44,008 nt of DNA from an uncultured bacterium (GTDB lineage Bacteria > Patescibacteriota > Minisyncoccia > Phycocordibacterales > UBA9973): positions 1-44,008 of the forward strand of contig CAITEG010000004.1 in the NCBI GenBank assembly GCA_903891365.1, in the 5' to 3' direction. Under the pieces are notes generated by a model. That model did no database searches, was not told the origin of the DNA, and saw only the letters and a list, made by a program, of their open reading frames with translations. The position numbers and the translations under genes were made by a program. Of this stretch, positions 3,978-39,299 are shown one piece after another. Numbering within the stretch: position 1 is the first letter of the stretch; each line of letters begins with the position of its first letter.

Positions 3978-6313
3978 TCGTCAACACCTTCAGCCTCTAC
4001 AGCTTCGTTGGTGACAAAGTCATCTTTACTAAAGAGTGAAGCTTTACTAATTAGTTTGAGTGTCTTTGTAGTTGGGTACCACCTATTGTTTCGTACTCCA
4101 CCTATCTGCACTTGTTTCTTTTCTAGGAACAGGATTCTGCGTAGCATACCTCCAATCTTTCTATTCATGTATCCTGGCATATCGCGCCCTAGAGGTGCAT
4201 TACCAAGCCACACGGCTTGATAGACTTGCAAGACGGTAACGCCATCTTCTATATTTCGCGCAAAGTCAGCATACCAAGAGATAAGCTCTTCCTCATGGCC
4301 CTCACTATCCATACGAGATTCCTGGAGATCTGTCAACTCCTCTGGGTACTCCCAAGTAGTCTCGCCATCTTTTATGGCGCGGAAGTATGCTTCGGCTAGA
4401 ATCTGTTCCCTATTCTCTTTAAGCCAATCCAAGTCAGCTGGATGTTCCAGTTTGACAGGGAGGAAACGTCTGTTCCCACTATCATCTTTGAGATACTCTG
4501 TATCATTTGTGGTCATAGCAAAGACGCAGTGACGCTTCATCCTGCTCCAGCCTGATTCATAAGGAAGGCGCACCTGGTCTTCAGTTTTAGTAATAGTGGC
4601 TTTCATTTCCCTAACTTCTGTGCGATTAAGAGTCTCACCCTCTGCAAGCTCTACTATCACATTGTGAGCAAGAAGCATTGCAAAATCCTTGGCTGCCGCC
4701 CCATCTACGCGCGCAGTGGATTCAACGTGCCATTCACCCCCTAGCACGGCTAGAGAGGTTGTTTTCTTCCACCCCTGTGGCCCTTCTAGAACAAGAACCT
4801 CGTCAAATTTACATCCAGGACGAACCACGCGTTTGATGAGACCTTTGATCCAATTAGCCCCTATGGCCTGGTGGAGGGGATCATCCGGCGTGCCATACGT
4901 TTTGTACATCCAAGAATCTAGACGGGGGGACCGGTCCCACTCGAATGATGTGAAGTAGTCGCGCACTGGATTTACTTGGTTGTGGCGTGCATACGCTACT
5001 ACGGAAGCTTCTACTTTTGCGTAGCTTACATTTGCGAAGTGTGGGTAATAGGTGCGCTGGATATAAACTTGGGCATTTATGATAAAAGCCTTGCATAAGT
5101 CTTCCCAAACCCCACGCTCGTTTAGGGCTTCTGTCATATATGAGAAGCTGTTGTAGCGGAAGCGATCTTTTAGATATAGATCTTCTTTAAATATACGTAT
5201 GATATTTTCTTCGTTATTGTCATAGATTAAGCGACCCTTGACACCAGGTTTAGATTGTAGTGTAGCAAGAACCCTCTCCACCTCATCGTCATTGACAACA
5301 GGCGCTCCAGCTTCGCAATGAGACTTACTCCCTTCATAAACTTCACGACACCCTTTTATTGCTTTGTCAATAGTGCGTTCTCTGTAGTTTGGTCGCTTCT
5401 GTGTCTTCTCGCGCGCACCCAATGGAGAGCTCATCCAAGCTTTTTCAATTAGAGTTGCGTCACGACCAAACCAAAAAGCAAGGTGTGAGCAAAGCCCTAA
5501 GTCTGCGGAGCTGTGGTCGCCCGTATATTCGGAAAGATCACCGTCCCAGAGTGCACGAATGGCTTTCCCATTCTTTGAGGCAAACATTTTTTCTAGAAGA
5601 TCGTCGTAGTCTGCGACGCTAGCTCCTGTAGAAATAGGAGTAAGAGAAGCAGTTTCACCCTGTGAAGCGTCCTTACGACCTCCCCAAGGATAGCCCAGCA
5701 AAGCCAGGATTTCCTCTAGCTCTTCTGTCGTGACACTACAGACAGGAACATTACAGATGGTATCGCCAGTAAAGGTAAAGTAACGACCAGACGCATAAAT
5801 CTCAACCTCGGGTTCTCCACGAAGTTTGTATTCTTTCGGTGTGCGATTTAAGATTGGAACATAGCGTTCATCTAATTTGAAAAATGCGTGTATACCAGTG
5901 CCTGAAGGTGACTTCTCCATATAGGTGGACGCTGTTTCTACGAATGGTTGTATCGCCACGTCAAGGATAGGATCGCCATCAGGCCCATAAGCTATGACGT
6001 GATCAAGATCTACCGCAACTATATTTTCTGCTTCAAAGACAACACCAACACCCCCAGCAAGGATGGGAGCTACTCCTTCTTTGTAGTGAAGGTCGCCTAG
6101 GAAGTTTGGACGCGCCTTGTCAACTACGGAATATGTGGTCCAAGTGTTTGGGTCGGTTGAGGAACCGTAGGAACCGTCGTACCGATAGGGTACTTTGGTT
6201 CGACGTTTCTCACCACCCTCCTGGATACTTCGTTCCTCAAGGCGCCAATTCATCCATATCTTTTTTTCTCCATATTCCTTGATGAACTCATTCTCAGTTT
6301 CTTTATCTTTCAT
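3974..6313 (-). CDS. primase-polymerase (Prim-Pol) + PriCT + VirE-like P-loop NTPase (replicative primase/helicase)
   Basis: Prim-Pol motifs AVDLDH and SPSGTGIHAFF. PriCT-like segment GDHSSADLGLCSHLAFWFGRD. Walker A-like LEGPQGWKKTT, Walker B VIVELAEG, then FAMTTN and RRFLPV, as in the VirE/D5-like NTPases. Confidence 0.8.
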   Translation of the reverse strand: MKDKETENEFIKEYGEKKIWMNWRLEERSIQEGGEKRRTKVPYRYDGSYGSSTDPNTWTTYSVVDKARPNFLGDLHYKEGVAPILAGGVGVVFEAENIVAVDLDHVIAYGPDGDPILDVAIQPFVETASTYMEKSPSGTGIHAFFKLDERYVPILNRTPKEYKLRGEPEVEIYASGRYFTFTGDTICNVPVCSVTTEELEEILALLGYPWGGRKDASQGETASLTPISTGASVADYDDLLEKMFASKNGKAIRALWDGDLSEYTGDHSSADLGLCSHLAFWFGRDATLIEKAWMSSPLGAREKTQKRPNYRERTIDKAIKGCREVYEGSKSHCEAGAPVVNDDEVERVLATLQSKPGVKGRLIYDNNEENIIRIFKEDLYLKDRFRYNSFSYMTEALNERGVWEDLCKAFIINAQVYIQRTYYPHFANVSYAKVEASVVAYARHNQVNPVRDYFTSFEWDRSPRLDSWMYKTYGTPDDPLHQAIGANWIKGLIKRVVRPGCKFDEVLVLEGPQGWKKTTSLAVLGGEWHVESTARVDGAAAKDFAMLLAHNVIVELAEGETLNRTEVREMKATITKTEDQVRLPYESGWSRMKRHCVFAMTTNDTEYLKDDSGNRRFLPVKLEHPADLDWLKENREQILAEAYFRAIKDGETTWEYPEELTDLQESRMDSEGHEEELISWYADFARNIEDGVTVLQVYQAVWLGNAPLGRDMPGYMNRKIGGMLRRILFLEKKQVQIGGVRNNRWYPTTKTLKLISKASLFSKDDFVTNEAVEAEGVDD

Positions 6314-7908: not shown

Positions 7909-8312
7909 ACAAGTTTGTTATAGTCCTTTCGGAATCTAAGTTGATAAAGCCAGACAGACCATCGACAGGCTGTCAGTTCATCAGGACCGAAGAGATGATG
8001 AGCGAGTTCATGGAAGAGGCTTATAATTGAGCCATCCTTTACGAAGATAAAGTAATCGAATTCACCGACTACATATCTTGTTGGTTCTCCTTCCTTTACG
8101 TAGACTGGTTGGGCGTTATATGCATCAGTGATGATATTTACTAATGCTTGCTGGCAGAATCTTTGGTCTATTCTATTGGGCCAATTTCTGTAGCATCTTC
8201 GTTTCCAGTCACTTATTCTTGTCATTAGACCAATTGGATATATTGGTCTTGGTTCTGCCAAGATTTGCTTCTTAGTCGGATATTTACTTGTATCCCGGGT
8301 CATCGTCGTCAT
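7818..8312 (-). CDS. putative zinc metallopeptidase-like protein (HExxH)
   Basis: FHELAHHLFGPDE contains HExxH and resembles the ImmA/IrrE or SprT-type motif. The start is uncertain: ATGs at 8330, 8312 and 8303, and the track uses a GTG at 8378. Confidence 0.45.
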   Translation of the reverse strand: MTTMTRDTSKYPTKKQILAEPRPIYPIGLMTRISDWKRRCYRNWPNRIDQRFCQQALVNIITDAYNAQPVYVKEGEPTRYVVGEFDYFIFVKDGSIISLFHELAHHLFGPDELTACRWSVWLYQLRFRKDYNKLVWNKHLLVKPLSSKRVVAQSPSHHKVATIV

Positions 8313-10239
8313 AATCCATTTCGTCAGCATAAGCCGGCGAGAGTTTAGCTGCCTTGACAATATGGGCAAGTGTTTCACAACGGGAGCGAAACTTATCCAT
8401 TTCAGTCTTGATGTTATTGATGTGCCATCCTATCTGAAGAGGAAGCCCTTCCTCAGCAGCAATATTAACAACCTTCCTTAGATATTCATCAACACGCATC
8501 TCGGTGGCATTCAGAATTGTGGAACCAACTCCTTCAGCTTCTTCTAGGATTTCGAATGGATCTTTATCATCTCCAGTGTTACTTAGTGCTTCTAGCATTA
8601 ACTCCGCTTCTCCTTCAAGTACGTCTACTGGAGTTTGAACACTAGACACTTCTGTAAATTCAGCGTCGGTGATACGTTCATCATCTCTACCCATGGCTGC
8701 ATCAGCCAGAGCCCGAACTCCCTGAGGCTTATTAATCCTTTCTAGAATAGTTAGTGCATAGGAATCGTTCTTAACTACGGCACCAGCTGGTTTGCTTGGG
8801 AAGGCTTCTTCGATATCCTTGTCGAAGTTTTCGGATATCGCATCATTATTTTCATTGTCACATATTTCTGCATCAGTCTTTGGGTTTGTGAATGCTGCAG
8901 CCAAAGCTAGAACAACTTCACAATAAGTGCAGAATTGAAACACTGGCACATATGCCCCAGCGATCTCGCTCATTCTTACATTAGTGAGCTCCCGCCCCAC
9001 CTTGTCAATATCGTCGAAAGTCTTCCATTTCGAGAGATCAAACTTTTTTTCTTCGAGAGCTTCTTCTAGACATTCATCATAAGATACTTCTTGGGTGACT
9101 AGGCCTATACCTTCTACGAAGAGTTCATTTGCTCTCTTAAGATCTCCCATGCTTATGGCTAGATTGAAATCCTTAATAATTCCTTTCCCTTCTAGGGTTT
9201 CAATAGCTGCATGGTCATTAGAGTCAGTGAATACTTTACCTAGTGGCCCACTCATCATTTGATGAACGATGTGGGACTGAGATACGAATTTATATTCGTC
9301 TTCTGTTTTAGATTTATCTCCTCTATTTGGTAATAGCCACATATTTTTTTCTTTGTTCCACTCGTATCCGGCATCCGTCATTCCTTTCTTTAGATCTGCA
9401 TCAGACACCTTGTTTCTATTGGTTCCAAAGCCTATGCTTCTACCACTATAAGACTCCTGTTTAGCTGGCGGTTCAGGAGTATATTTCATCGTGATAGTCT
9501 TCTTGAGTTTAGTGAACGTTACTAGACCGCCTTCTTTATAGACAGCTTCTAGAACTACCACTTCATCTTTCTCTAATGGTTGACCTAGAGTTTCCTCAGA
9601 AGCGAAAGCCCAGCCAGAGTTAGACTCCCAGATTTTCATACCTGCATATCCATTTGTGCCTAGTAGGATTTGATGGATCTTATCATCTTTTGTTCTAGAT
9701 ATTGCCCAGAAGGTGAATCCTCCTTTGGCACCAATATCAGGAATCTTGCCTTCGAAGAATCTAGCTAGTTCAATAGCGATGGCTTCACTATCATTGAACT
9801 TCATGGTATAACTGGCGCTGTTAGCTGCCCAAGCTTTTCTATATTCTGTTTCATATAGATAGCCAGCTTTCTCGTGAACAGCCTTCAATTCCTCATCATT
9901 ACTGATCACACCATTGTGAGCGATGAGCCATTTATATGTCAACTCTTCATTCTCTATTGCCATTGGATGAGTTTGGCTCATTAGATTATCTGAAGAAGTT
10001 GGCATTCGATGATGGAATAATATGTGACGAGATTGAGGGTCAGTATACATGTCATGAAACATCTTTGCTGCCTCAGTTGCACGATCTACACTTACAATTC
10101 CTTTATCATCTATTTTTACTATACCGAACCCACGAGTACCTCTTCCTTGTTGGTCTTCAAATTGATTTACAACATAGTCGATAGCGCGAGCAGGCGGTAT
10201 CTTTTTGTCTTTACTTACCCATCCGATTAGTCCACACAT
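8284..10239 (-). CDS. class-II (Ntn) glutamine amidotransferase domain fused to an ~400-aa acidic uncharacterised C-terminal region
   Basis: Begins MCGLIGW (catalytic Cys2). Also has RGTRGFGIV, LFHHRMPTSS and AHNGVISN, typical of GATase class II. The remainder has no recognised motif. Confidence 0.7.
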   Translation of the reverse strand: MCGLIGWVSKDKKIPPARAIDYVVNQFEDQQGRGTRGFGIVKIDDKGIVSVDRATEAAKMFHDMYTDPQSRHILFHHRMPTSSDNLMSQTHPMAIENEELTYKWLIAHNGVISNDEELKAVHEKAGYLYETEYRKAWAANSASYTMKFNDSEAIAIELARFFEGKIPDIGAKGGFTFWAISRTKDDKIHQILLGTNGYAGMKIWESNSGWAFASEETLGQPLEKDEVVVLEAVYKEGGLVTFTKLKKTITMKYTPEPPAKQESYSGRSIGFGTNRNKVSDADLKKGMTDAGYEWNKEKNMWLLPNRGDKSKTEDEYKFVSQSHIVHQMMSGPLGKVFTDSNDHAAIETLEGKGIIKDFNLAISMGDLKRANELFVEGIGLVTQEVSYDECLEEALEEKKFDLSKWKTFDDIDKVGRELTNVRMSEIAGAYVPVFQFCTYCEVVLALAAAFTNPKTDAEICDNENNDAISENFDKDIEEAFPSKPAGAVVKNDSYALTILERINKPQGVRALADAAMGRDDERITDAEFTEVSSVQTPVDVLEGEAELMLEALSNTGDDKDPFEILEEAEGVGSTILNATEMRVDEYLRKVVNIAAEEGLPLQIGWHINNIKTEMDKFRSRCETLAHIVKAAKLSPAYADEMDYDDDDPGYK

Positions 10240-10241
10240 AT

Positions 10242-12140
10242 TTAGAATGACGCTTGCGCGTTGTTATGATTAATTGTTCCAATAAGATATGATCTTGCTA
10301 CTGGAGATAATGAGTGGGTGATTCGTCCATTGGATGTATCGCTTAAATATTCTACAAGTTCTCTAGCAACTTCTTCTCGTGCTGCTTGGTCTACATTCCA
10401 ATTCCATCGATCATTATTCTGCATGAGTATAATTATTTTCACGAATGGTGATCCAGAATATGGGGCCATTGCTCTTGATAGATCTCTAATTACACCACTG
10501 ATAGCAGAATCAATAGAGTAGCTTCCAGGATTAGTTTCCATTTCAGCTTGTACAGCATCATTGCTTAGTTGTCTAGGATTGTCAGCTCTAGATTCAGCTC
10601 TCTCTAGTCCTACCTCCATCTCTTCTTCTTTCTTCATAGATTCAAGAAGAGGACTTGGTCCAGGGGATAGAGTTGCTGAGTCTAATGGAATGAATGTTTT
10701 AGGAGACTTTTCAAACTTAAGCACAAGTCTGATTAGGGGCTTAATATCTCCTTTTCTTCTCATTTCATATGGAAGACCAATCATTACTCTTCGGTTATCC
10801 TTGGAGCTGATTAATTTTCCAGTACGAGCATTTAACACTCGACCATACATAGGAACAGCTTCATTTTTGTTTCCTATTCGATCAAACTTACTTGACAAGA
10901 GAGAGAAATCTTCTATTGTGGTTATTATTTCATGACCCGCAATAAAGAGTCCATTTTCATCTCTCATTACAAGAGCGTTCAGACCTTTCTTAAGACCGAA
11001 GAGATAATATTCATGCTGTGGTTTCCATCCAAGCGCGATACACCTCTTAGATAATGCTGTGGCAAATTGTTCAACATTCAGGTCTTCATTCCAAGCGAAC
11101 TGACTCATGTTTCTGATTACTGATTCAGGGAATTTAGAAGTCTTTTCTTCGATCTCTTCATCTTTAAAGAAGGATGTTATAGGGATCTTGGCAGATCCTT
11201 GTGTGAAACCCCAACCTTCATTAATAGAATAATGGGCTTTTACTTTCTCTTCCATTACTCTAGATGGAGACATTATAAGTTCAAGTTCTGCTTTATATTC
11301 AGGATAAGCAGGATGAGCTCGTACGAAGGGACGAATTTTGTCCAGATAAGATTTCTGAATGTTCACATAATTATCTAGAAGAAATGGAAGATACTCCTTC
11401 GCTTGTTTCCGGCTTCTGAACAAGACTGGCCCGACAGGTTTCAAGTTGCCCTTGAGAATGCTGTCCCAACAGATTGCCATATAAGCCAACGTCCCGAGAG
11501 CAATCTTTTCTGTGGTTACCCACTCAGCTCCTGGAGCTCGAACTTCAAGAGTGAATCCATCAGCACCGCTAGGGAATTTGAATCTCGGAGTGTCTATTCT
11601 GAAATCGAATAGCTCACCATAGTGGCCAGATTGGAATCCCTTTCTCAATTGACTTGACAGTTTGTTTTCTCCCATCATAATTAGAATGATGAAAGTTCCT
11701 ACAGCTCGTTCAATAGCTGCCCATTTTTCAGTTTTATTACGCCACATCTGATTGAAGTCTTCTGGAATGGCGAGATGGATATGACCACCAGCACTTGCAG
11801 CAATGGTGAGGGTGGACATGTCTACGAATGGAATCTTATCGGCAGCTTGTTTGAATAGAGATTTCATATTAGCCACAACTTCTCGTGGTGTGCCTGGATC
11901 TGGTCTAAGCTCACCAGTAGCATTATGACCATCCCAACCAATATCTCCTCCAGGAAATGCAAATCCAGCAGGTGTCTTTGCTTCTCCTTTGAAGAAAGTT
12001 GTGAAGATCTCTATTGCACTAATTGGTCGAGAGCCACTCACTACAGTGAACTCAGGGTCAGCGCCCACTTTGAATGGGAATTCATAAGCGGGTTTAACTT
12101 TTGGTTCTTCTACCACAGGCTCAACTGTTGTTTCAGTCAT
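10242..12140 (-). CDS. glutamine-synthetase-fold carboxylate-amine ligase (amidoligase), paralog A, with an ~300-aa C-terminal extension
   Basis: VGADPEF, GELRPDPG, SAGGHIHLA and LEVRAPG match the acidic/His/Arg motif series of the GS/GCS2-fold amidoligases. All four are shared with the next gene. Confidence 0.6.
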   Translation of the reverse strand: MTETTVEPVVEEPKVKPAYEFPFKVGADPEFTVVSGSRPISAIEIFTTFFKGEAKTPAGFAFPGGDIGWDGHNATGELRPDPGTPREVVANMKSLFKQAADKIPFVDMSTLTIAASAGGHIHLAIPEDFNQMWRNKTEKWAAIERAVGTFIILIMMGENKLSSQLRKGFQSGHYGELFDFRIDTPRFKFPSGADGFTLEVRAPGAEWVTTEKIALGTLAYMAICWDSILKGNLKPVGPVLFRSRKQAKEYLPFLLDNYVNIQKSYLDKIRPFVRAHPAYPEYKAELELIMSPSRVMEEKVKAHYSINEGWGFTQGSAKIPITSFFKDEEIEEKTSKFPESVIRNMSQFAWNEDLNVEQFATALSKRCIALGWKPQHEYYLFGLKKGLNALVMRDENGLFIAGHEIITTIEDFSLLSSKFDRIGNKNEAVPMYGRVLNARTGKLISSKDNRRVMIGLPYEMRRKGDIKPLIRLVLKFEKSPKTFIPLDSATLSPGPSPLLESMKKEEEMEVGLERAESRADNPRQLSNDAVQAEMETNPGSYSIDSAISGVIRDLSRAMAPYSGSPFVKIIILMQNNDRWNWNVDQAAREEVARELVEYLSDTSNGRITHSLSPVARSYLIGTINHNNAQASF

Positions 12141-13186
12141 GATTTACGTTCTAGATAAGCTTCAAAACCTTTATCTTCATAGGTGAAACGATAGTTCGAC
12201 CAGTGCTTAAGAGGATCACCTCTGAATGATTTCTTAATACCTTTCTCAATAAACTTTTCAAATGCTGGCATACTTCTGTCGTTCAAACTGTGTCCAGTGA
12301 AATTAGGACACCATTTTATAATGATTGGTTTGATTCTATTGAAGTTAGCCAGCGCTAGGTTAAAGTCATTGTTATTAATTGCGTGAACGATTTCGAGTTC
12401 ATTCACGGCTGCCATCAATTCTTTGCCTGCTTTCTTATTCTCTGCAAAGCCGAGACCTTGGCGACATAGTCCCATAACCATACTCATGAGTGTATAGTTT
12501 TTCAACCAGAAGTTGCCTAGAACTCTATATTCAATACCATGAGGTTGAATACGATATTCTCCTGCGCGCCCATAATACTTTCGTCTCTCGATTTCTCCTT
12601 CATCACGATCGAGAAGTACACAAGTGTTACCAACGATAATATCCAGGATCTTTACAATCTTTTCAGCTTCTTTACCATCTTTAAGCATGTTTATTACACA
12701 TTGTTCTGATGATCCAGGAGATGTTCCTAGATGGATATGACCACCGGCACTTCGATAAAGATATTTACTGGCGTCTGGAAGCTGGGGATAGTTTCCATAT
12801 GCATTTAAGCTAGGAGAACATCCAAAGCGTTTGCTATCTGGACTTAGAGAATCCATTTCCTTTTTGGTTACTTTAACCAAAACATTCCAATTGATGGTGA
12901 TACGTTTACCAGCTATTTGTCTTTGGACTCCTTGGAATAGTTCATGGATTCTATAAGAGAAACTTTGACGACAGCGATTGAAGTATGGATTCAGCTCTGC
13001 TTGAATACCATCTATAATCAATTTACCTCCAGATGTATTTATTCCTTCTTTGGGGAGGATTTTTTCTGCACCTATGATTGAACTTGGATTACCCACTAAG
13101 TTCTTTCTTGCGAAAAAGAACTCAGGATCAGCTCCCCAAGTTGGATGCAGATATTTAATTGTGGGTTTGATTTCTGTTTCTGGCAT
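12137..13186 (-). CDS. glutamine-synthetase-fold carboxylate-amine ligase (amidoligase), paralog B
   Basis: WGADPEF, IQAELNP, SAGGHIHLG and IEYRVLGN. It has an ATGA overlap with paralog A (12137-12140). The start at 13186 (MPETEIKP) was chosen by analogy with paralog A (MTETTVEP). The track uses a TTG at 13234. Confidence 0.6.
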   Translation of the reverse strand: MPETEIKPTIKYLHPTWGADPEFFFARKNLVGNPSSIIGAEKILPKEGINTSGGKLIIDGIQAELNPYFNRCRQSFSYRIHELFQGVQRQIAGKRITINWNVLVKVTKKEMDSLSPDSKRFGCSPSLNAYGNYPQLPDASKYLYRSAGGHIHLGTSPGSSEQCVINMLKDGKEAEKIVKILDIIVGNTCVLLDRDEGEIERRKYYGRAGEYRIQPHGIEYRVLGNFWLKNYTLMSMVMGLCRQGLGFAENKKAGKELMAAVNELEIVHAINNNDFNLALANFNRIKPIIIKWCPNFTGHSLNDRSMPAFEKFIEKGIKKSFRGDPLKHWSNYRFTYEDKGFEAYLERKS

Positions 13187-13373
13187 GTTTAATAATAAAA
13201 CCCCATCATGAAGCGACATCTGGAAACGGGGCAATACATTGCAGGTTATTCTTTACTGGTGAATAACAACCAGTTATACAGTTCTGCTTACCTCTTAGTT
13301 AGGCGAGGATATTGTGGATAGCCATTTCCATGTGTCGCCCCACAATGGGGCAACGAATAAATGACTCAGTAGG

Positions 13374-14710: not shown

Positions 14711-14932
14711 TTATAACGATAGGTTAGCTCTTAGTAGCAGAGTGCGGGCTTCATCGACTAATATTTTAAGGGCTATTTCGTCGTATTTACTACCACTCTC
14801 GTCATCATAGTCTGTTATATCTGCTTTTGATTGCCACGAAGCGATTTCTAGTTTTAGAACTGTGTTTTTCCCGAATACATAGTTTATAAACCTACTTATA
14901 ACGGTAATCGGACTATAAGAATAGTTAATCAT
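14711..14932 (-). CDS. hypothetical protein (73 aa from the internal ATG)
   Basis: The ATG at 14930-14932 overlaps the upstream TGA as ATGA. The longer track ORF would overlap the upstream gene by 90 nt. Confidence 0.45.
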   Translation of the reverse strand: MINYSYSPITVISRFINYVFGKNTVLKLEIASWQSKADITDYDDESGSKYDEIALKILVDEARTLLLRANLSL

Positions 14933-15198: not shown

Positions 15199-15238
15199 AA
15201 GATTATTAATAATGAGGGAACTAAAGCTCCCTCACAAA

Positions 15239-15249
15239 ATAGAGTCGTA
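15239..15249 (-). promoter_or_regulatory. TACGACTCTAT motif, copy 2
   Basis: atagagtcgta on the plus strand. It is followed on the minus strand by the hairpin tgaggga (15213-15219) / tccctca (15228-15234). Confidence 0.5.
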
Positions 15250-15625: not shown

Positions 15626-15709
15626 ACGATGTTATCGTTTAGCGAATAAGGTAGCTAGCTGAAGCGCTAGCAAGACTGAGAGGCATCTCCTAAGATATAC
15701 CTCTCATAT

Positions 15710-15720
15710 ATAGAGTCGTA
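15710..15720 (-). promoter_or_regulatory. TACGACTCTAT motif, copy 3
   Basis: atagagtcgta on the plus strand. It lies about 85 nt upstream of the ATG at 15625 and is followed on the minus strand by the tgagagg/cctctca 7-bp stem. Confidence 0.5.
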
Positions 15721-15771
15721 ATGTATTAGGGAACCATGTCCTCATATAATCATCTACGCTTCTATACATAT

Positions 15772-15782
15772 ACAGAGTCGTA
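15772..15782 (-). promoter_or_regulatory. TACGACTCTGT motif, copy 4 (one substitution)
   Basis: acagagtcgta on the plus strand, 62 nt from copy 3 and in the same orientation. Confidence 0.4.
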
Positions 15783-15979: not shown

Positions 15980-16008
15980 TTGACAGTCCTTCTAATCGCG
16001 CGTAATAT
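15980..16008 (+). promoter_or_regulatory. sigma-70-type promoter giving a leaderless mRNA
   Basis: TTGACA (15980-15985), a 17-bp spacer, TAATAT (16003-16008), 6 nt, then the ATG at 16015. A second TTGACA lies at 15972-15977. Confidence 0.6.
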
Positions 16009-16014
16009 GAAACT

Positions 16015-16818
16015 ATGATCAAAAAGAAACTAGTGGCTAAGCCTGCTAAGCCTAAGGCGAAGCTTAAGCCTAAGGCGAAGCTTAAGCCTAAAGCGAAGCT
16101 TAAGCCTAAGGCGAAGCTTAAGCCTAAGGCGAAGCCTAAGTCTAAGGCGAAGCTTAAGCCTAAGGCGAAGCCTAAGTCTAAAAAGTCTGAGGTCCTCCTC
16201 AATATTGGTTGCGGCATCACCCTCTTTAAAGACTTCATCAATATTGACAAGTACTTTACAGAAGAGCAACTTCGTCAGGGGGCAACGTCTCACACAGGAC
16301 CATGTGCCAACGCTCTCTACCCGCGCGGAGCATCCTTCCTTCAGGCAGACATGCTAGACTTGCCTATAGACGCAAACTCTGTAGACTATATTGAGTCGAT
16401 GGAAGCCCTGGAGCACCTAAAGTTTTGTGACGTAGAAAAAGCTGTAGCCGAAATGTACCGGGTACTAAAACCTGGAGGCAAACTTGTCTTGTTTATTCCC
16501 GACATGGATGATATGTGTCAAGTCTGGACAGAGAGGATCGGTAGTGGGGCACCCTTCGGGCCGGAGGACTTCTTTCAGATGGTTCAGATGTTTTATGGGA
16601 ATCAAAAACATGACGGCGAATATCACAAGTCTTGTTTCAACGAAACCTACATGGGTCTGATGATGCAGGCAATAGGATTCGAAGCGAGGAATATTAGGAT
16701 AGCCCACTGCAGTCATGGTCAGCAGGTACCCAAGATCCGAGGAGCGTCAGCATCCCCCGCGTGGGACAGCAAAGCTGTGCTCATTATAGGGTTCCTACTT
16801 ATAGAGGCCACTAAGTAG
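16015..16818 (+). CDS. class I SAM-dependent methyltransferase with an N-terminal (KPKAKL)n lysine-rich repeat tail
   Basis: Residues 8-57 are KPAKPKAKLKPKAKLKPKAKL...KPKSKK. These are followed by SAM motif I LLNIGCG, then VDYIESMEALEHL and YRVLKPGGKLVLFIP (Methyltransf_11/23-like). No DPPY/NPPY or PCQ DNA-methyltransferase motif was seen. Confidence 0.75.
   Translation: MIKKKLVAKPAKPKAKLKPKAKLKPKAKLKPKAKLKPKAKPKSKAKLKPKAKPKSKKSEVLLNIGCGITLFKDFINIDKYFTEEQLRQGATSHTGPCANALYPRGASFLQADMLDLPIDANSVDYIESMEALEHLKFCDVEKAVAEMYRVLKPGGKLVLFIPDMDDMCQVWTERIGSGAPFGPEDFFQMVQMFYGNQKHDGEYHKSCFNETYMGLMMQAIGFEARNIRIAHCSHGQQVPKIRGASASPAWDSKAVLIIGFLLIEATK
16036..16180 (+). repeat. 18-bp tandem repeat aagcctaaggcgaagctt (about 7 units, degenerate at the ends)
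   Basis: Near-perfect (single-mismatch) units at 16048-16065, 16066-16083, 16084-16101 and 16102-16119. Variant units extend to about 16178. The repeat is in frame and encodes KPKAKL. Confidence 0.9.
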
Positions 16819-16840: not shown

Positions 16841-17467
16841 ATGACACTCACAACACTCAAATATTTGATGTGGTTTTTAAACGCCTATAGCGACGAGATA
16901 AAGCCAGAGGCTCGCATCGCTGATTATGGTGGAATAGATAATCCTGACACAGTGATTTTTCCCCAGGTTGTTAAGAAAAGTTTGGCAGGTGCGGGCCGAC
17001 TTAATTATCACGCTCTGGATTTTGATAGTGGGGTAGATCTGCGCAAACCCTTACGGGGTCCTAAGTATGACGTTGGTATTTGTATGGATCTGCTTGAGCA
17101 TTGTAGTGATCCCTTTCTTGTGGCACATAATATTCGAGATAGTCTACGGCACAACGCGCTGCTTTTTGTAACCGCACCATTCATATGGGATCCTCATTTT
17201 TTCCCAAAGGACTATTGGCGTTTCACACCGCAGGGGATTGAAGAGCTTTTTAGTGCCGAAGGTGATCCGAAAGCTATGGATGTCCTCGCTCTAGGTATGG
17301 TTCGTGATCCTAACAAGGGAGAATTTTTACAACTTTGTCGCGTAGTTGCAGTCTTTCGAAAAGCAAAAAAGAAAGATCGAAAACGAGATGATGCGGCTCG
17401 TTCTATCTTTCCTCCAGAGTGGGGAGTAAGAGGGTTTGACAAGACAACATTTGGCATGGTACCATAA
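16841..17467 (+). CDS. methyltransferase-fold protein with a degenerate SAM motif I
   Basis: ARIADYGG (degenerate GxGxG), YDVGICMDLLEHCSDP and NALLFVTAPF follow the layout of class I methyltransferases. The ATG is at 16841. The track uses a TTG at 16829. Confidence 0.5.
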   Translation: MTLTTLKYLMWFLNAYSDEIKPEARIADYGGIDNPDTVIFPQVVKKSLAGAGRLNYHALDFDSGVDLRKPLRGPKYDVGICMDLLEHCSDPFLVAHNIRDSLRHNALLFVTAPFIWDPHFFPKDYWRFTPQGIEELFSAEGDPKAMDVLALGMVRDPNKGEFLQLCRVVAVFRKAKKKDRKRDDAARSIFPPEWGVRGFDKTTFGMVP

Positions 17468-17473
17468 AAAGAT

Positions 17474-18460
17474 ATGAATACACCACAAGCAATTTCAAAA
17501 TCAAAACACATAGAAGAGAACGGGGTATGGGGTCCAGACGAATTAGAAGATAAGGTAGTTCGCCCTACACAGTGGGGGTTGGTGCGTCCTGACACATTTA
17601 AAGCCTTCAGTCTCACTCGCAAGAAACTAGCGCCCGGAGCCTATACAATAACGCGTGATAATCAAGATGACCAACCAATTTATTTCCGTAGACAGATAAA
17701 AAGTGACACAGATATGAAGGTTTCTGAGGGTTTGTCAAAACAAATCATAGAGGAAATTACTAACTTCTGGGTTAAGAACGAAACATTTCGTAAAAATGGC
17801 TTTCTCCATTCGCGTGGATACCTTCTATATGGAAGTCAGGGCGTTGGGAAATCGTCTGTAGTGCGACAGATCATGAGTAATGTGATAGAAAATGATGGAA
17901 TAGTTTTCATCTGTGGTAATCCTGCGTTCTTTAACCTTGGATTGAAGGTCTTCCGACAGACTGAACCTGATCGTCCAGTGGTTTGTGTCTTCGAAGACAT
18001 CGACGCCATCATTCGTAAATACGGAGAGGATGAGATACTGTCCATCCTTGACGGTGAAAACCAAATCGATCGTGTGCTTAATATCGCCACCACAAATTAT
18101 CCAGAGAATCTTGATCGGCGGATTATTTCTCGTCCACGTCGTTTTGATCGTGTCTACAAAATAGAATCACCAAGCGAAACTTCTCGTAGAGAATATTTCT
18201 GTGTGAAACTTCCGAAGATGCCTAAGGCGAAACTTGAGACTTGGGTTAAGAAAACAAAAGGACTTACGTTTGCAGGATTGGCAGAGCTTCTCATTAGTAC
18301 ACAATGTCTTGGCAACAAGTTCGATGAAACAATTAAGGTGTTGAAAGATCTTGAAAATGGTCATCCATCATCAGCAGATTTTGGCGGTAGGATCGGATTT
18401 GAAAAAGAGGGAAAAGATAATGACGAAGAGGGATCAAAAGTTGAGTGCATCGAGGACTAG
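17474..18460 (+). CDS. AAA+ ATPase (classical AAA, BCS1-like core) with an ~110-aa unknown N-terminal domain
   Basis: RGYLLYGSQGVGKSS (Walker A), VVCVFEDIDAI (Walker B), ATTNYPENLD (sensor 1), and RPRRFDRV (Arg fingers/SRH). Confidence 0.8.
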   Translation: MNTPQAISKSKHIEENGVWGPDELEDKVVRPTQWGLVRPDTFKAFSLTRKKLAPGAYTITRDNQDDQPIYFRRQIKSDTDMKVSEGLSKQIIEEITNFWVKNETFRKNGFLHSRGYLLYGSQGVGKSSVVRQIMSNVIENDGIVFICGNPAFFNLGLKVFRQTEPDRPVVCVFEDIDAIIRKYGEDEILSILDGENQIDRVLNIATTNYPENLDRRIISRPRRFDRVYKIESPSETSRREYFCVKLPKMPKAKLETWVKKTKGLTFAGLAELLISTQCLGNKFDETIKVLKDLENGHPSSADFGGRIGFEKEGKDNDEEGSKVECIED

Positions 18461-18469
18461 AAAAGTCGT

Positions 18470-18540
18470 TTGACTTATAAAAGTCACTCAATAAATTGAG
18501 TTGACTTATAAAAGTCACTCAATAAATTGAGTTGACTTAT
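18470..18540 (+). repeat. 31-bp tandem repeat, 2 full copies plus a 9-nt partial copy
   Basis: ttgacttataaaagtcactcaataaattgag occurs at 18470-18500 and 18501-18531, then ttgacttat at 18532-18540. Each unit contains the palindromes gactt-ataa-aagtc and ctcaa-taaa-ttgag. Confidence 0.9.
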
Positions 18541-18654: not shown

Positions 18655-21600
18655 ATGTCTAAACTAAAGACATTTGTGACTAGTGCTGCGCTTGCAGTGG
18701 GAGCCTTGGCGTTCGCGTCGAGTGCTTTTGCGGCGGGCCTTACTGGTTCACAGGTCCAGTCAATCCTTTCACTTCTCGCTTCTTTTGGAGCAGATAGTGC
18801 GACGATTGCAAATGTTAGTGCCGCATTAAATGGTACTCCGGTAGTAGTATCGCCCTCTTTCAAGATTGGTGATACAGGACCGGCAGTGGTCGCTCTTCAG
18901 AAACAACTTATTGCAGATGGCTATCTAAAGATTGCTGCTCCAACAGGTTACTACGGAAAGCTCACACAGGCAGCGGTTCTAGCAAAGGCAGCTTCAACTT
19001 CCTCTTCTTCGTTTACTCCAGTAACTATGGTTGGGAATGGATTGAAGGTTGCTATTTCTTCAACTTCTCCTAATGGTACAGTGCTTGTAGCGGGTCAGGG
19101 TATCGGTGATCTTGGGAACTTTGTATTCTCAAATCCTACCGCAACTCCGATTAATGTTACCGGTCTTACCTTCAAGCGCCTAGGAGTCAGCAATGATTCC
19201 ACACTTGTAAACGTGTATCTCTATAATGGAGTAACACGAATCACTGATTCTGCTGGAGTCAGTAACGGACAGTTCTCGTATACTGATCCTACAGCACTCT
19301 TCACAGTGCCTGCAGGCGGTACGTACGTAGCTTCAGTTCGTTCTGATATCGACAGTTCAGCTTCGGGACAGCAAATTGGAGTTTCTCTGGTCTCCGTTTC
19401 TTCAAATGGTACCCTAGATTCTTCCGTAGTCTTCCCGATTTCTTCTAGTTATCAGACTGTGTCGGCAGCCACTCTAGCAGGGGTTGACTTCTCGTCTGTT
19501 AGCCAGTCCACAGCATCTATCTCCCCACAGAGTAATTATCCTCTATGGCAAGAGACAGTCTCTATCAATCAGAACCCAGTTAAGTTGTCTTCACTTAAAT
19601 TGACAAATCTTGGTTCTATTGATTCGAGTTTGGTCCAAAACCTTCGCCTCTATGTAGATGGTGTACAGGTTGGAAGTGCTGCTATTCTCTCTGACAGAAC
19701 AGCAACGTTTGACTTCAGTGCAAATCCTGCGATTCTTAACACTCAGAACCACACAATTAAGGTTGTTGGTGATATTGTTGGAGGATCGTCTCGCACTATC
19801 GAACTTTCGTTGCAGCGTTCTTCAGATGCAATGTTCGTAGACACGCAACTTGGTCAGCCAGTCACGATGACAGTTAATGGTAACGTATTCACTCCTGTGA
19901 ATGGTTCTATTATCACTATCAACGCTGTTACTGGTTCTACAGGTATCAGTGTGTCAATCGATCCTGCTTCACCTAACCAAGATGTCGCCCTAGGCGCGTC
20001 TAGTGTTAAGTGGGCAACGTTCGACGTTCTCGTCTCAGGTGAGAATGTAAAACTAAACTCTCTTAACGTATCGTCAAATGTAGCTCTTGCAAATGGCAAG
20101 ATTTATATTAACGGTAGTCAAGTTGGTTCTACAAAATCACTCGGCACTTCGGCAGTAACATTTAACACCTCGGCAGTTCTACCTGCAGGACAGACTTCTC
20201 ATGTAGAGATCTACGCTGACGCGAAGACTCCAACAGGAAATCTTTCAAACGGTCAGACTGTTATCGTTACATTGAATGCGGGTAGTTCAAATGCTCAAGG
20301 ACAATCGTCTTTGAACACTGCGAATGTTCCTGCTTCCGATACTTCGGGAAATTCAATTAACGTTACAAATTCGTCTCTAAGTGTAACTAGATATTCTGGT
20401 TACGGTAGTCAAACTATTATTCCTGGCTCAGTATCACGCATCGGATCGTTTACGATCTCTGCTGGTTCTACAGAGGGAGTAACTGTGAACACTATTAATC
20501 TTTCGCTTTCGGCTGCGAATGCAGCTTCGATTACGAATCTTACCCTTAAGGATGGTTCGTCTGTCTTGGGTAATGTAGTGACGACGCCTTCGATATCAAG
20601 TTCTTATTCTGTCAACCTAGACATTCTAGCTTCTCAGACAAAGACTATTGATGTTTACGGCAATGTGCTTTCTGGTGCGGCTAACGGCTCTCTAGTAGTG
20701 TCCGTTTCAGTATCAGGAAATGGTGATCAAACTGGCAACACAACTTCATCGTCTGCGGTTTCTCTACAGACAATGACTATTGGTTCCGGTTCACTTAGTG
20801 CTACTGTTGCTGCAGGAGATCCTGTATCAGCAAATATTGTTGCTGGCGCAGCTTCTATTAATGTCGGTCAGTTCGAATTTAATGCAGTCAGTTCTGCATA
20901 CACAATTCAGAATCTCGACATTTCAGTTGCTGGGACCATCAATGATGTTACTGCTGTCACTGTCACTTATCTAGATGCAAATGGTAATACCCAAACATCA
21001 ACACAACCTATCGTAGGAACTGTTGCTTCGTTCTCGGGTCTTAACATTTACGTTCCGGCTAATGATCAGGCAGACGTAACCGTGAGTATAGGAACTCCTA
21101 CAATTGCCTCTGGCGCACAGTCAGGATCAAGCGTAAGTGTTGGACTAGCAAGTTCAAACTTCCGTGCAGTTGATGCTTCCGGTAGATCCATTACAACAGG
21201 ATTTACGAAAGCTGCTGAGGGAACATTCTATGTGTACAAGAGCATCCCAACATTTGCGACGCTCGCAATCACATCGAATATTCCATCTTCAGGGAATCCT
21301 CTCTATCGTTTCAGCGTAACTGCTGATCCGAAGGGTTCTATTGATCTCTCAAAGGTAACATTCAATTTGTCAACGACAAGTGTGTCGGTAACAAATATGT
21401 ATGTTGTTGATGAGGCTTCAGGACTCAGTGTTGGGTCTGTCGGTGCAAATGGCGCAGTAGCCATGACACAACAGATTGGTGCTGGTATGTCTAAGACATA
21501 CGCCCTCTACGGTACAGTAGGAGGCTTCACCACGGGTTCTTCTCTTACAATTAGCCTAGCGCAGGATACGTCTCTTTCCACGACAAATGTTCAGTGGTCA

Positions 21601-21672
21601 GATCGTTCTACTACAGCAAATGGTTATCTGTTAAAGAACTTCACAACAAACGCTACTTCTTACTCGAAGTAG
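18655..21672 (+). CDS. secreted peptidoglycan-binding protein with long Ser/Thr/Val/Asn-rich beta-repeat region (1005 aa)
   Basis: Sec-type signal peptide MSKLKTFVTSAALAVGALAFASSAFA/AG. PG_binding_1-like segment GDTGPAVVALQKQLIADGYL...TGYYGKLTQAAV. Recurring ~100-aa modules follow (e.g. NLRLYVDGVQVGS, NGKIYINGSQVGS, NLTLKDGSSVLGN). Confidence 0.7.
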   Translation: MSKLKTFVTSAALAVGALAFASSAFAAGLTGSQVQSILSLLASFGADSATIANVSAALNGTPVVVSPSFKIGDTGPAVVALQKQLIADGYLKIAAPTGYYGKLTQAAVLAKAASTSSSSFTPVTMVGNGLKVAISSTSPNGTVLVAGQGIGDLGNFVFSNPTATPINVTGLTFKRLGVSNDSTLVNVYLYNGVTRITDSAGVSNGQFSYTDPTALFTVPAGGTYVASVRSDIDSSASGQQIGVSLVSVSSNGTLDSSVVFPISSSYQTVSAATLAGVDFSSVSQSTASISPQSNYPLWQETVSINQNPVKLSSLKLTNLGSIDSSLVQNLRLYVDGVQVGSAAILSDRTATFDFSANPAILNTQNHTIKVVGDIVGGSSRTIELSLQRSSDAMFVDTQLGQPVTMTVNGNVFTPVNGSIITINAVTGSTGISVSIDPASPNQDVALGASSVKWATFDVLVSGENVKLNSLNVSSNVALANGKIYINGSQVGSTKSLGTSAVTFNTSAVLPAGQTSHVEIYADAKTPTGNLSNGQTVIVTLNAGSSNAQGQSSLNTANVPASDTSGNSINVTNSSLSVTRYSGYGSQTIIPGSVSRIGSFTISAGSTEGVTVNTINLSLSAANAASITNLTLKDGSSVLGNVVTTPSISSSYSVNLDILASQTKTIDVYGNVLSGAANGSLVVSVSVSGNGDQTGNTTSSSAVSLQTMTIGSGSLSATVAAGDPVSANIVAGAASINVGQFEFNAVSSAYTIQNLDISVAGTINDVTAVTVTYLDANGNTQTSTQPIVGTVASFSGLNIYVPANDQADVTVSIGTPTIASGAQSGSSVSVGLASSNFRAVDASGRSITTGFTKAAEGTFYVYKSIPTFATLAITSNIPSSGNPLYRFSVTADPKGSIDLSKVTFNLSTTSVSVTNMYVVDEASGLSVGSVGANGAVAMTQQIGAGMSKTYALYGTVGGFTTGSSLTISLAQDTSLSTTNVQWSDRSTTANGYLLKNFTTNATSYSK

Positions 21673-22898: not shown

Positions 22899-23294
22899 AT
22901 GAGGTATTATTTTCGTGATAAAAGTAAGGAATTAGGACTCCTAACACAAGAGGAATTTTTTAGAGATGTTGCTTTTGCTACTCGTTATCTTGATCGTGAG
23001 GATGTAAGAACAGTGTATAAAGCAATACTAGCCATTGTGTGGAGAGAAATAAAAGCAAAAGGGACTATCAGACTCCCTTCTTTGTGTGATATATACCTAA
23101 GACAACGCCCCACAATGAGGTGTGCTGGAAAATATATTCCAGGGACCGTGGTTGTCCAGGCCCATCATAACTTATCATTTAGTACACTAGAATCAGTACG
23201 TGTGTACGTAAAGAAGTTAGAACAGGAGAATCCAGGCAAACTGTTCGACCCAGCCAAACGCATAGAAAGAGGAGGGGACATCACACAACTGTGA
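22899..23294 (+). CDS. HU/IHF-like DNA-binding protein (divergent)
   Basis: GTIRLPSLCDIYLRQRPTMRCAGKYIPGTVVVQAHHNLSFSTLESV aligns by eye with the HU beta-arm region (vqL.GFGtF.v..RaaR.GRNP.TGe.i.I.a...v.F). A helical N-terminal half precedes it. Confidence 0.5.
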   Translation: MRYYFRDKSKELGLLTQEEFFRDVAFATRYLDREDVRTVYKAILAIVWREIKAKGTIRLPSLCDIYLRQRPTMRCAGKYIPGTVVVQAHHNLSFSTLESVRVYVKKLEQENPGKLFDPAKRIERGGDITQL

Positions 23295-37511: not shown

Positions 37512-37617
37512 TATCGAGTAACTGTTGTATCTTAGTTAGTAAGGGGAAGTCTCTTTGGAGGTTTCCCTGAACTAGCCCGGATAAAAATTCGTGCTAATTA
37601 ATAAGTAATATAAAACT

Positions 37618-39295: not shown

Positions 39296-39299
39296 TTTT

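Follow-up and report, generated by a model that had tools for sequence, protein, structure and literature searches.

The tailed methyltransferase described here is encoded in the genome of an uncultured freshwater phage whose capsid and portal are SU10-like; the identity of the capsid to those of cultured phages was at most 29%. No tRNA genes were found in the window (the whole 44,008-nt stretch of DNA that was analysed), and the ORF at 16015-16818 was the first gene of a rightward operon. The relevant features are as follows.

15980-16008, + strand: sigma-70-like promoter (TTGACA, 17-nt spacer, TAATAT), which scored 10/12 and was the top site of the region.
16015-16818, + strand: early methyltransferase ORF of 267 aa, with a basic tail predicted to be disordered (residues 1-60) and a predicted class I SAM methyltransferase core (residues 61-267).
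16036-16053, + strand: two copies of a 9-bp unit (GCTAAGCCT), which encode AKPAKP, lead into the array and were found in every allele.
16048-16173, + strand: 18-bp array of seven in-frame units (consensus AAGCCTAAGGCGAAGCTT), encoding KPKAKL four times, KPKAKP, KSKAKL and KPKAKP.
16195-16815, + strand: Methyltransf_11-type Rossmann core with motif I LNIGCG, D78, DYIE..EHL, EMYRVLKPGG and the family-specific YGNQ.HDGEYHK.FN.
16841-17467, + strand: MTase2, a second methyltransferase-like gene of 208 aa from the ATG at 16841, with a weak Methyltransf_12 match.
17474-18460, + strand: AAA+ ATPase (Pfam AAA; 69% identity to its counterpart in the related locus L006), the third gene of a conserved early module.
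18218-18235, + strand: in-frame copy of the 18-bp unit within the AAA ATPase gene (ATGCCTAAGGCGAAACTT, 16/18 matches, encoding MPKAKL; 0 expected by chance).
41324-42004, + strand: late methyltransferase with the Lys-rich N-terminus MAKAKTKIVKAKTKKKS.
41964-42947, + strand: GT-A-fold glycosyltransferase-like protein with a Lys-rich N-terminus of ~36 residues, predicted to be disordered.

Tandem Repeats Finder detected 7.5 copies of an 18-bp period at 16047-16181 (93% matches, score 235). In a search for 18-mers with at most 3 mismatches, with 100 dinucleotide-preserving shuffles as the control, seven in-register units were found at 16048-16173, and matches were obtained in 0 of the 100 shuffles. 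An earlier note on this DNA had described a near-perfect KPKAKL-type array encoded by about seven 18-bp repeats, and these seven in-frame units bear it out. A partial eighth unit extends to 16181, and KSKKSE comes after the seven units. Since the units were 93-100% identical to one another, the expansion of the array is recent, and since one unit corresponds to six codons, the gain or loss of whole units stays in frame. The 18-mer search found no other clustered copies of the unit beyond the array; at the position of the MPKAKL copy in the AAA ATPase, L006 has T--EKL.

In-frame start codons ahead of SAM motif I were present only at codon 1 (ATG) and codon 7 (GTG), both of which lie 5' of the array. 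A downstream start that skips the tail, raised in the earlier note as a way in which its reading could fail, was rejected since no in-frame ATG, GTG or TTG occurs between codons 7 and 113 and motif I lies at residue 62; the tail is thus necessarily translated. Residues 8-57 consist of 50% K, 18% A, 18% P, 10% L and 4% S, and the net charge of residues 1-60 is +27 as compared to -8 for the core. In the AlphaFold2 model, residues 1-30 and 32-54 had pLDDT values below 50 and no secondary structure, and the ~50-residue tail is predicted to be disordered. It contains no amphipathic helix or hydrophobic anchor, and the prolines occurring every 3-6 residues disfavour one. No Pfam family covers residues 1-57, and a homology search with the tail only gave no match at E <= 1e-3. 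On these sequence criteria, the H1-like resemblance of the tail is one of composition, not of common descent.

The core matched Pfam Methyltransf_11 (PF08241) with 50.4 bits against a cutoff of 21.2 (E = 3.7e-13), and the three motifs on which the earlier note had based its complete class I methyltransferase core were indeed present: LNIGCG (residues 62-67), EALEHL and VLKPGGKLVLF. Among 13 homologues, N63, G65, G67 and D78 were invariant, which represent the glycine-rich motif I and the acidic residue ending strand 2. AlphaFold2 modelled the core as alternating strands and helices (pTM 0.73; pLDDT mostly above 80 for residues 60-267), and all top Foldseek matches were class I methyltransferases. 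The fold neighbours included the sugar O-methyltransferases RebM and AtmM, which ranked 9-14 among equally good generic matches, the Trm112 partner Hvo_0019, and METTL6. Like these enzymes, which are among the leading matches by sequence as well as by fold, the phage protein has a Rossmann fold, motif I and an acidic residue after motif I; however, the identity is just 12-20%. No characterised enzyme was identified that has the YGNQ.HDGEYHK.FN segment and so short a connection from motif I to strand 2.

A regular-expression search of the 267-aa protein for (D/N/S)PP(Y/F/W/H) or PC(Q/K) returned nothing, and DNA methyltransferase families were absent from the Pfam, NCBIfam and PHROG matches and from the top 50 fold matches. 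A DNA-base methyltransferase was thus rejected, as the earlier note had anticipated from the lack of motif IV. Its neighbours, by sequence and by fold, belong to generic class I enzymes of the small-molecule, sugar-O and tRNA types, and the core reached no specific or curated NCBIfam family cutoff; it is a predicted class I SAM methyltransferase of a generic, non-DNA-base type. A DNA hypermodification pathway in which the methyltransferase would be a tailoring enzyme received no support: Pfam and PHROG scans of most window ORFs of at least 100 aa detected no dNMP hydroxymethylase, TET/JBP, DpdA or QueC-type gene, and all that they revealed was a phiEco32-like module of amidoligase and GATase genes.

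As only 6 nt separate the -10 hexamer from the ATG of ORF 16015, the mRNA from this promoter is probably leaderless or almost so. The geometry is the same in L006 (TTGACA-17-TAAAGT-6 nt-ATG), where the homologue (P0003) is 50% identical to the 267-aa protein. TAATAT-N6-ATG as a general leaderless signal was rejected; just two sites were found, no more than chance would give, and one of them, the second, has no -35 element. Shine-Dalgarno-like motifs were present in only 3 of 34 genes of the phage genome. Short MKK-type N-termini are common in this genome, which generally lacks Shine-Dalgarno sites. MTase2, which showed 56% identity to a 203-aa protein of L006, adjoins the first methyltransferase gene in the closest relative too, and it is missing from the strain with the 233-aa allele described below.

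Searches of GenBank phages with blastn and tblastn revealed no real homologue of the tailed methyltransferase. Since the matches in species-representative genomes were merely generic and covered ~55 residues of the methyltransferase, they provided no cellular orthologue and no clue to the host. The family was found here only in phage-like contigs and appears to be restricted to phages. N-termini in the family are net positive in 86% of members, the median length of the N-terminal extension is 7 aa, and more than 80% of members have no extension. Polybasic extensions of 20-36 aa occur in P0022, P0004, P0062 and P0003, where they are independent in origin; most homologues lack a long one, and the tail is thus an accessory and not a family feature. 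None of the approximately ten family members in IMG/VR has a tail, tail-less homologues hold the same genomic position, and within the family the repeat array is confined to the lineage of the 16015 ORF.

Among near-identical phage contigs, three alleles were found: 267 aa in 16 contigs, 231 aa in 3 and 233 aa in 1, with identical methyltransferase cores. L001 and L002 lack six units (108 bp) of the array, and near-identical strains retain just 1-1.5 units. The net charge of the N-terminal extension before motif I is about +27, +9 and +7 across the three alleles. Assembly collapse was ruled out as the origin of the 231-aa allele, since the junction k-mers (k >= 19) are missing from the long allele; the junction is common to three assemblies. 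As the 231- and 233-aa alleles occur in apparently viable strains, the array is dispensable. The 267-aa allele outnumbers the short ones (16 vs 4 contigs), and since it is identical and of the same length across 16 contigs from at least six samples, its maintenance is stable. Thus, of the earlier proposal that slippage of the repeat tunes the length of the tail, the variation in copy number stands, but tuning is weakly supported, because the long allele is invariant in at least six samples and no intermediate lengths were seen among the 20 contigs. Exact-flank DNA scans of metagenome and viral collections gave 0 matches, and the phage is not contained in those collections.

The Lys-rich N-termini that the earlier note had pointed out on the 41324 methyltransferase and, with less certainty, on the 41964 protein are both present. 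Only 3 of the 38 ORFs have at least 10 K/R in their first 30 residues, namely the early methyltransferase, the late methyltransferase and the GT-A protein, and a post-hoc Fisher test for the bias of strongly basic N-termini towards transferases gave p = 4.7e-4. The 41964 protein, previously taken for a glycosyltransferase, models as a GT-A fold; its best Foldseek match was STIV A197 (E = 3.6e-7), with COLGALT1 and heparosan synthase next, and E140, D142 and N143 are invariant. The late methyltransferase pairs with the downstream GT-A in L011-L015 too, and the partner of the GT-A family was a fixed methyltransferase in the six loci examined; co-variation of the tails of the GT-A and its partner across these loci was only partial, so it was not counted as evidence.

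Nucleoid proteins are already known to carry lysine-repeat tails, as is one class of DNA enzyme, the actinobacterial TopA. The lysine-repeat C-terminal domain of Streptomyces TopA stabilises the enzyme-DNA complex and gives processivity (PMC5714199). As a long low-complexity lysine-repeat tail on an enzyme, it is the best functional analogy to the phage tail. However, the substrate of TopA is DNA and its tail is C-terminal, whereas the phage tail is N-terminal, encoded by a near-perfect 18-bp repeat and attached to a generic methyltransferase, for which a tether role is predicted. In Chlamydia Hc2, DNA repeats encode tandem peptide repeats rich in Lys, Ala and Pro, and the size of the protein differs among strains through repeat gain and loss (PMC2848022). 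Hc2 and Bordetella BpH1 resemble the phage tail in having K/A/P-rich tandem repeats that are encoded by DNA repeats and vary in number among strains, but both are nucleoid proteins in their own right, carry no catalytic domain and show no detectable homology to the phage tail; moreover, the phage shows only three alleles, two of which are nearly tail-less. The tail of Pseudomonas AlgP (KPAA repeats), which is similar in its K/P/A repeats and H1-like composition, is needed for the even spacing of polyphosphate granules, with which AlgP associates (PMC9239181). The lysine-repeat tails of AlgP, Hc2 and TopA bind DNA (PMC5714199, PMC2848022, PMC9239181). Since the case of AlgP means that tails of this kind bind polyanions in general, DNA binding by the phage tail is not to be assumed.

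By analogy with these systems, we tentatively favour a tail that acts as an electrostatic tether holding the enzyme at a polyanion, a reading to which we give somewhat short of an even chance. In its favour are the obligatory translation of the tail, its charge and predicted disorder, the independent polybasic extensions of other family members, the confinement of strongly basic N-termini to the three transferases and the constancy of the long allele; against it are the many family members that work with no tail, the short alleles and the recent date of the expansion, which could be nearly neutral. Tandem duplication of the 18-bp unit has expanded the short basic N-terminus of the family in this lineage alone. 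The tail would tether electrostatically without sequence preference and hold the enzyme on a polyanionic surface, raising its local concentration near the substrate, much as the lysine-repeat tails of actinobacterial topoisomerase I and of H1-like nucleoid proteins do. The leading candidate for this surface is nucleic acid, either replicating phage DNA and the nucleoid or RNA, and the methyl acceptor may be something at the tethering surface, such as RNA, a protein bound there or a hydroxyl group on a sugar or glycan. Since their Lys-rich N-termini are similar, the early methyltransferase, the late methyltransferase and the GT-A protein may be sent to the same place.

That place may instead be a membrane or an envelope polymer. 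The polylysine N-termini of the three transferases would hold the enzymes on the anionic inner-membrane leaflet or on an anionic lipid-linked polymer, the targets would be lipid-linked or cell-surface glycans or glycosylation of virion proteins, and DNA would not be involved. This reading draws on the fact that all three of the tailed proteins are transferases, and on the fold neighbours of the 41964 protein, which include polysaccharide synthases and protein O-glycosyltransferases. The GT-A is always paired with a methyltransferase inside a structural or lysis module, RebM and AtmM are among the top fold matches of the early methyltransferase, and the H1-like tail of AlgP binds non-DNA polyanions (PMC9239181). 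Relatives of the early methyltransferase are also fused to glycosyltransferase domains or lie beside dTDP-sugar genes: GT2 or GT4 domains are present in 5 of 9 distant multi-domain relatives, with scores that partly sum several generic domains, and in L009 and L010 only, a homologue is located beside RmlA- and epimerase-type sugar-nucleotide genes. However, these glycan clues are generic, a distance of 25 kb separates the GT-A pair from the early methyltransferase, which has a promoter of its own, and the proline-interrupted tail offers neither an amphipathic helix nor a hydrophobic anchor. We regard a membrane tether as unlikely.

To a similar degree, we doubt that the tail is a near-neutral low-complexity expansion, in which slippage on an in-frame 18-bp repeat inflated a short basic N-terminus into a tail that is tolerated and does nothing specific. 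The age of the array fits such an origin, as do the rarity of extensions in the family, the commonness of short MKK-type N-termini in this genome and the short alleles of related strains with identical cores. The AAG:AAA ratio of lysine codons, 24:4 in the tail vs 103:115 elsewhere, is also what is expected from the copying of a unit and not from codon selection. Yet the long allele is the commoner one and is constant in length across samples, non-repetitive polybasic extensions evolved independently in the methyltransferase family and in the GT-A family, and the three basic N-termini of the genome are all on transferases.

A more specific form of tethering appears improbable to us, namely that the three transferases work on the phage chromosome or nucleoid via H1-like tails, adding methylated sugars to DNA or DNA-bound proteins after replication, with the repeat-encoded tail length as a rapidly evolving dial for the grip on DNA. 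It is still less probable that the polybasic tail is a virion-packaging signal, by which the enzyme would be co-packaged with DNA and enter the next host on injection. Several viruses package basic proteins together with their DNA, and the charge of the tail is compatible with this; however, the gene opens an early or middle operon that has a host-type promoter and lies outside the structural module, neither a prohead-protease site nor a capsid-targeting motif was identified, and homologues at the same genomic position have no tail. Least probable of all is that the 18-bp units are iterons, operators or mRNA structure beside the divergent promoter region with the peptide as a by-product, since, even though the array lies 33-167 nt downstream of the promoter within the divergent control region, its units contain palindromes (AAGCTT, GCTTAAGC), its RNA folds better than shuffled sequences (z = -3.05) and the origin iterons of phage lambda are located within the O gene, every unit is in frame in an ORF obligatorily translated through the array, no other clustered copies exist, strains with just 1-1.5 units occur, the 18-bp spacing does not put sites on one helix face, and non-repetitive Lys-rich tails on homologues and on two other transferases point to selection at the protein level.

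We found no description in the literature of a phage methyltransferase of this generic class I kind with a lysine-repeat tail. Should the tail be a tether to nucleic acid or another polyanion, in-frame repeat expansion would be a cheap evolutionary route to the relocalisation of an enzyme. The three alleles on an identical core provide a natural series for probing tail length against localisation and activity. The GT-A family, to which the 41964 protein belongs, is highly conserved and unannotated; it comprises at least 1,900 proteins in environmental phages, with variable Lys-rich N-termini, and at least some of them occur with SU10-like structural genes. Its pairing with a methyltransferase hints at a widespread, uncharacterised phage glycosylation system.

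The early methyltransferase, a 267-aa ORF at 16015-16818 (+ strand), contains a tandem array with a period of 18 bp (7.5 copies with 93% matches at 16047-16181 by Tandem Repeats Finder). When up to three mismatches were allowed, the unit AAGCCTAAGGCGAAGCTT was found in seven contiguous in-register copies at 16048-16173, and the same search gave 0 matches in 100 of 100 shuffles. The array is translated in frame as four KPKAKL, KPKAKP, KSKAKL and KPKAKP, followed by KSKKSE. Residues 8-57 consist of K (50%), A (18%), P (18%), L (10%) and S (4%), and the net charge is +27 in the first 60 residues versus -8 in the other 207. In an AlphaFold2 model built with a 13-sequence alignment, the tail had a pLDDT below 50 and the core was a confident Rossmann fold (pTM 0.73). 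This tail, encoded in frame by the repeat, is strongly cationic and, by prediction, disordered. The repeat array, the KPKAKL-type tail and the complete class I core described in the earlier note were thus all borne out by the ORF, the repeat analysis, the unit search, the translation and the Pfam match of the core. The reported absence of DNA-methyltransferase motif IV also held, with neither (D/N/S)PP(Y/F/W/H) nor PC(Q/K) present in the protein.

A search for in-frame ATG, GTG and TTG codons ahead of SAM motif I (LNIGCG, residue 62) gave just two, the ATG of codon 1 and the GTG of codon 7, and each of them precedes the array. Codon 113 comes next, and initiation there would remove motif I and the post-I acidic residue. 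Since no start lies between the array and motif I, every functional early methyltransferase carries the tail, and the skipping of the tail through a downstream start, which had been raised as a possible refutation, was ruled out. The best sigma-70-like site of the region (TTGACA, 17 nt, TAATAT) scores 10/12, and six nucleotides separate the end of its -10 hexamer (16008) from the A of the ATG. In L006, the contig of the closest relative, the gene of the 50% identical homologue has the same layout (TTGACA-17-TAAAGT-6 nt-ATG). This promoter geometry suggests that the mRNA is leaderless or nearly so, starting at the 16015 ATG. The number of sites in the promoter scan of the whole region (three versus 2.4 expected) was not above chance. 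Shine-Dalgarno motifs are generally absent from the window, with SD-like tetramers ahead of 3 of 34 genes, and many starts are preceded by an AT-rich TAATA-like sequence. GTAATAT(G/A)AAACTATG is common to two genes (16003-16017 and 37606-37620), the second of which has no -35 element. Direct repeats of CATATA(T/C)AGAGTCGTA at 15705-15720 and 15767-15782, with a weaker copy at 15234-15249, are candidate regulatory sites; they precede the methyltransferase promoter within the control region between the divergent genes.

The closest database protein, P0001 (231 aa), differs from the window protein solely by a clean 36-residue gap. In L001 and L002, two contigs with the short allele, exactly 108 bp (six units) are missing, and the aligned flanks match the window DNA with identities of at least 99.8% and of 98.5-100%. 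In a de Bruijn-graph collapse test, the k-mers of the short junction were compared with the long-allele genome and were absent from it for every k of 19 or more (e.g. CTAAGCCTAAGGCGAAGCC); an assembler run with k of at least 21 could therefore have built the junction only from genuine reads spanning it. An assembly collapse was ruled out by these junction-specific k-mers, and the junction occurs in three separate assemblies. A third allele, P0285 (233 aa), came from the 90% cluster; its tail reads AKPAKP-EAKLKP-KSKKSE, with a junction and register unlike those of P0001. The long allele is the common one (16 contigs), its length being exactly equal in L003, L004 and L005, and no intermediate tail length was seen among the allele-bearing contigs. 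A wider census by exact-flank scans gave no match in the scanned collections, which did not contain this phage. The array length has changed at least twice in nature, always in frame. The comparison of copy number across related genomes proposed in the earlier note thus yielded three tail lengths (267-, 231- and 233-aa alleles). Its prediction that the copy number could change was borne out by these alleles, with no evidence for rapid continuous tuning.

Strain-level differences occur among genomes otherwise more than 99.8% identical. In L001, a replaced segment (2397-2517, corresponding to window 14867-14929) lies beside a scaffold gap and marks this contig as a distinct strain. In the contig of P0285 (ERZ1426829), the second methyltransferase gene is missing, the AAA ATPase comes directly next, and the upstream intergenic region is longer.

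A profile search of 1.84 billion representatives (E < 1e-30) retrieved 83 proteins, nearly all of 197-230 aa. Since every genomic context examined was phage-like and about 185,000 species-representative genomes gave only generic matches over ca. 55 residues, the family appears to be restricted to phages. Among about 100 members, the stretch ahead of motif I has a median of 7 residues, the 61 residues of the window protein being the longest among true members, and the N-terminus is net positive in 86%. Non-repetitive polybasic extensions of 20-36 residues are present in a handful of homologues from different branches, namely P0022 (MAKKVVKKAAKKSSKKKQIK), P0004, P0062 and P0003. The window tail is thus a tendency that recurs in the family, exaggerated in this one lineage by the repeats, and family comparison indicates that it is not needed for catalysis.

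The core matched Pfam Methyltransf_11 at 50.4 bits (cutoff 21.2), as well as Methyltransf_25, _23 and _31. No NCBIfam family cutoff was approached. A Foldseek search of the PDB with the core model returned solely class I methyltransferases not acting on DNA, including the Trm112 partner Hvo_0019, several structural-genomics methyltransferases, JHAMT, METTL6, the sugar O-methyltransferases RebM and AtmM, and phosphoethanolamine N-methyltransferases; sequence searches agreed with this generic class I picture. From sequence and model, the core is predicted to belong to the class I methyltransferases and not to methylate DNA bases. Methyltransf_11 is fused to GT2, GT4 or GT1 domains in five of nine distant multi-domain relatives, and in L009 and L010 the homologue is tandemly duplicated and divergent from RmlA-like and epimerase/dehydratase-type genes. 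Along with the GT-A enzyme of the window, these features hint weakly at a sugar or glycan acceptor. Equally weak clues hint at an RNA acceptor: a PHROG family labelled tRNA methyltransferase matches the protein (E 4.9e-5), RtcB genes occur in the L006 and L009 neighbourhoods, and the fold matches include METTL6 and the Trm112 partner.

Lys-rich N-termini had also been noted on the late methyltransferase (41324-42004, +) and, tentatively, on the 41964 protein (41964-42947, +), and both were found (MAKAKTKIVKAKTKKKS... and MKKESKVISKLKTKTKKTVKIKTKKSVTKKEPKKPS..., respectively). Together with the early methyltransferase, these are the 3 of 38 window ORFs with at least 10 K/R in the first 30 residues; basic N-termini thus occur in 3 of 4 predicted transferases versus 0 of 34 other ORFs (Fisher p = 4.7e-4, post-hoc). 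The 41964 protein has no sequence match in Pfam, PHROG, NCBIfam or the PDB, and its family numbers at least 1,927 proteins, of which the aligned members are 53-75% identical to it. Its model, built with a 30-sequence alignment, is a GT-A fold. The best match is STIV A197, a glycosyltransferase (E 3.6e-7); collagen galactosyltransferase, heparosan synthase, GnT-I and SpsA come next. Since E-x-D-N is also invariant in the family at the expected DxD position, the provisional label "glycosyltransferase" is supported at the fold level. The GT-A gene overlaps the upstream methyltransferase gene in six loci (41324/41964 of the window and L011-L015), and all related phage contigs that were examined contain the pair. 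Wherever its neighbours were identifiable, they were head, lysis and large tail-like genes. The family N-terminus varies from 0 to ca. 60 Lys-rich residues, often containing KKEPKKP, and in the six loci the tails of the two partners co-vary only partly. The pair may represent an uncharacterised phage glycosylation module.

The tail of the early methyltransferase would act as an electrostatic tether to a polyanion. Of the explanations weighed, a tether to nucleic acid ranks first, although we stop just short of calling it probable. The closest functional precedent is Streptomyces topoisomerase I, in which a lysine-repeat domain stabilises the enzyme-DNA complex and gives processivity (PMC5714199). 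Hc2, an H1-like DNA binder, resembles the array in its repeat-number polymorphism (PMC2848022). However, the KPAA tail of AlgP, which associates with polyphosphate granules, is needed for their spacing (PMC9239181), and tail composition by itself therefore cannot point to DNA as the partner. Tethering to a membrane or envelope polymer, serving glycan modification, is unlikely, and near-neutral expansion of the array is unlikely to the same degree. That the tail is a packaging signal seems highly improbable. Least probable of all is a DNA- or RNA-level element: the array mRNA (16015-16200) folds better than shuffles into a long imperfect hairpin (minimum free energy -68.1 kcal/mol, z = -3.05) that leaves the first ca. 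20 nt including the AUG unpaired, but this folding follows from the palindromic unit, GCUUAAGC being present in each copy, and strains with just 1-1.5 units exist.

Class I methyltransferases, H1-like lysine repeats and repeat-number polymorphism are each already known. In the literature searched, we found no description of a phage generic class I methyltransferase with a repeat-encoded H1-like tail, nor of one with like-tailed partner transferases. Of most practical use are the series of natural alleles, which share an identical core, and the unannotated GT-A/methyltransferase pair.

From its sequence, the window is a phage genome, with the following features.

3974-6313, - strand: primase-polymerase, NrS-1-polymerase-like domain fused to a VapE-like helicase domain
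8284-13234, - strand: two phiEco32-type COOH-NH2 ligases and a GATase-like protein, in a row
16015-16818, + strand: early methyltransferase, first gene of the rightward operon
16841-17467, + strand: second methyltransferase-like gene
17474-18460, + strand: AAA+ ATPase
27651-29153: large terminase
29732-31921: SU10/P22-type portal
35283-36551: SU10-type major capsid protein
39264-40376: papain-like peptidase with a peptidoglycan-binding domain

The early methyltransferase gene points away from the replication and amidoligase genes, which run leftward, and the three-gene module that it heads is kept in L006 (50%, 56% and 69% identity in gene order). The ligase/GATase row corresponds to the amidoligase module of phiEco32-like phages, which is predicted to modify peptides or metabolites; the phage of the window is only very distantly related to them. 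No nucleotide match to the window was found among GenBank phages, and no cultured phage has a capsid protein more than 29% identical to the one encoded here. L003-L005 are more than 99.9% identical to the window; these and other contigs with the identical 267-aa protein came from several ENA assemblies and one JGI metagenome. The window has no tRNA genes, and the species-representative genomes searched gave no host clue. Among the scanned ORFs, no DNA hypermodification precursor enzyme (hydroxymethylase, TET/JBP or DpdA) was found.

The primase-polymerase is the only replication polymerase-like gene detected in the window, with no separate DNA polymerase. A weak HU-like ORF (E 0.003) at 22899-23294 (+) precedes a 1065-aa protein, and L009 shows a like order of an HU gene and then a large gene. 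The AAA ATPase gene holds a 16/18 in-frame copy of the array unit (ATGCCTAAGGCGAAACTT, MPKAKL) at 18218-18235 (+), 2 kb downstream of the array, where chance would give 0 such matches. At this position the L006 ATPase (69% identical) reads T--EKL, a stretch two residues shorter. The copy looks like a patch copied between the two genes or the seed of the array unit. Early in the rightward operon, 18655-21672 (+) encodes a 1005-aa protein that combines one peptidoglycan-binding domain with a classic signal peptide and a long region rich in Ser, Thr and Asn, for which no family match was found. Secreted or wall-bound phage proteins are unusual, and this one could be a glycosylation target. Between it and the ATPase gene, a perfect 31-bp tandem repeat (18470-18540, 2.3 copies) containing the palindrome TTGACTTATAAAAGTCA could be an operator or promoter array. 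A 66-bp tandem repeat (two copies, 96% matches) at 43879-44008 reaches the right end of the window, and this and a 37-bp repeat (two copies, 97%) at 2707-2780 may relate to genome ends or regulation.
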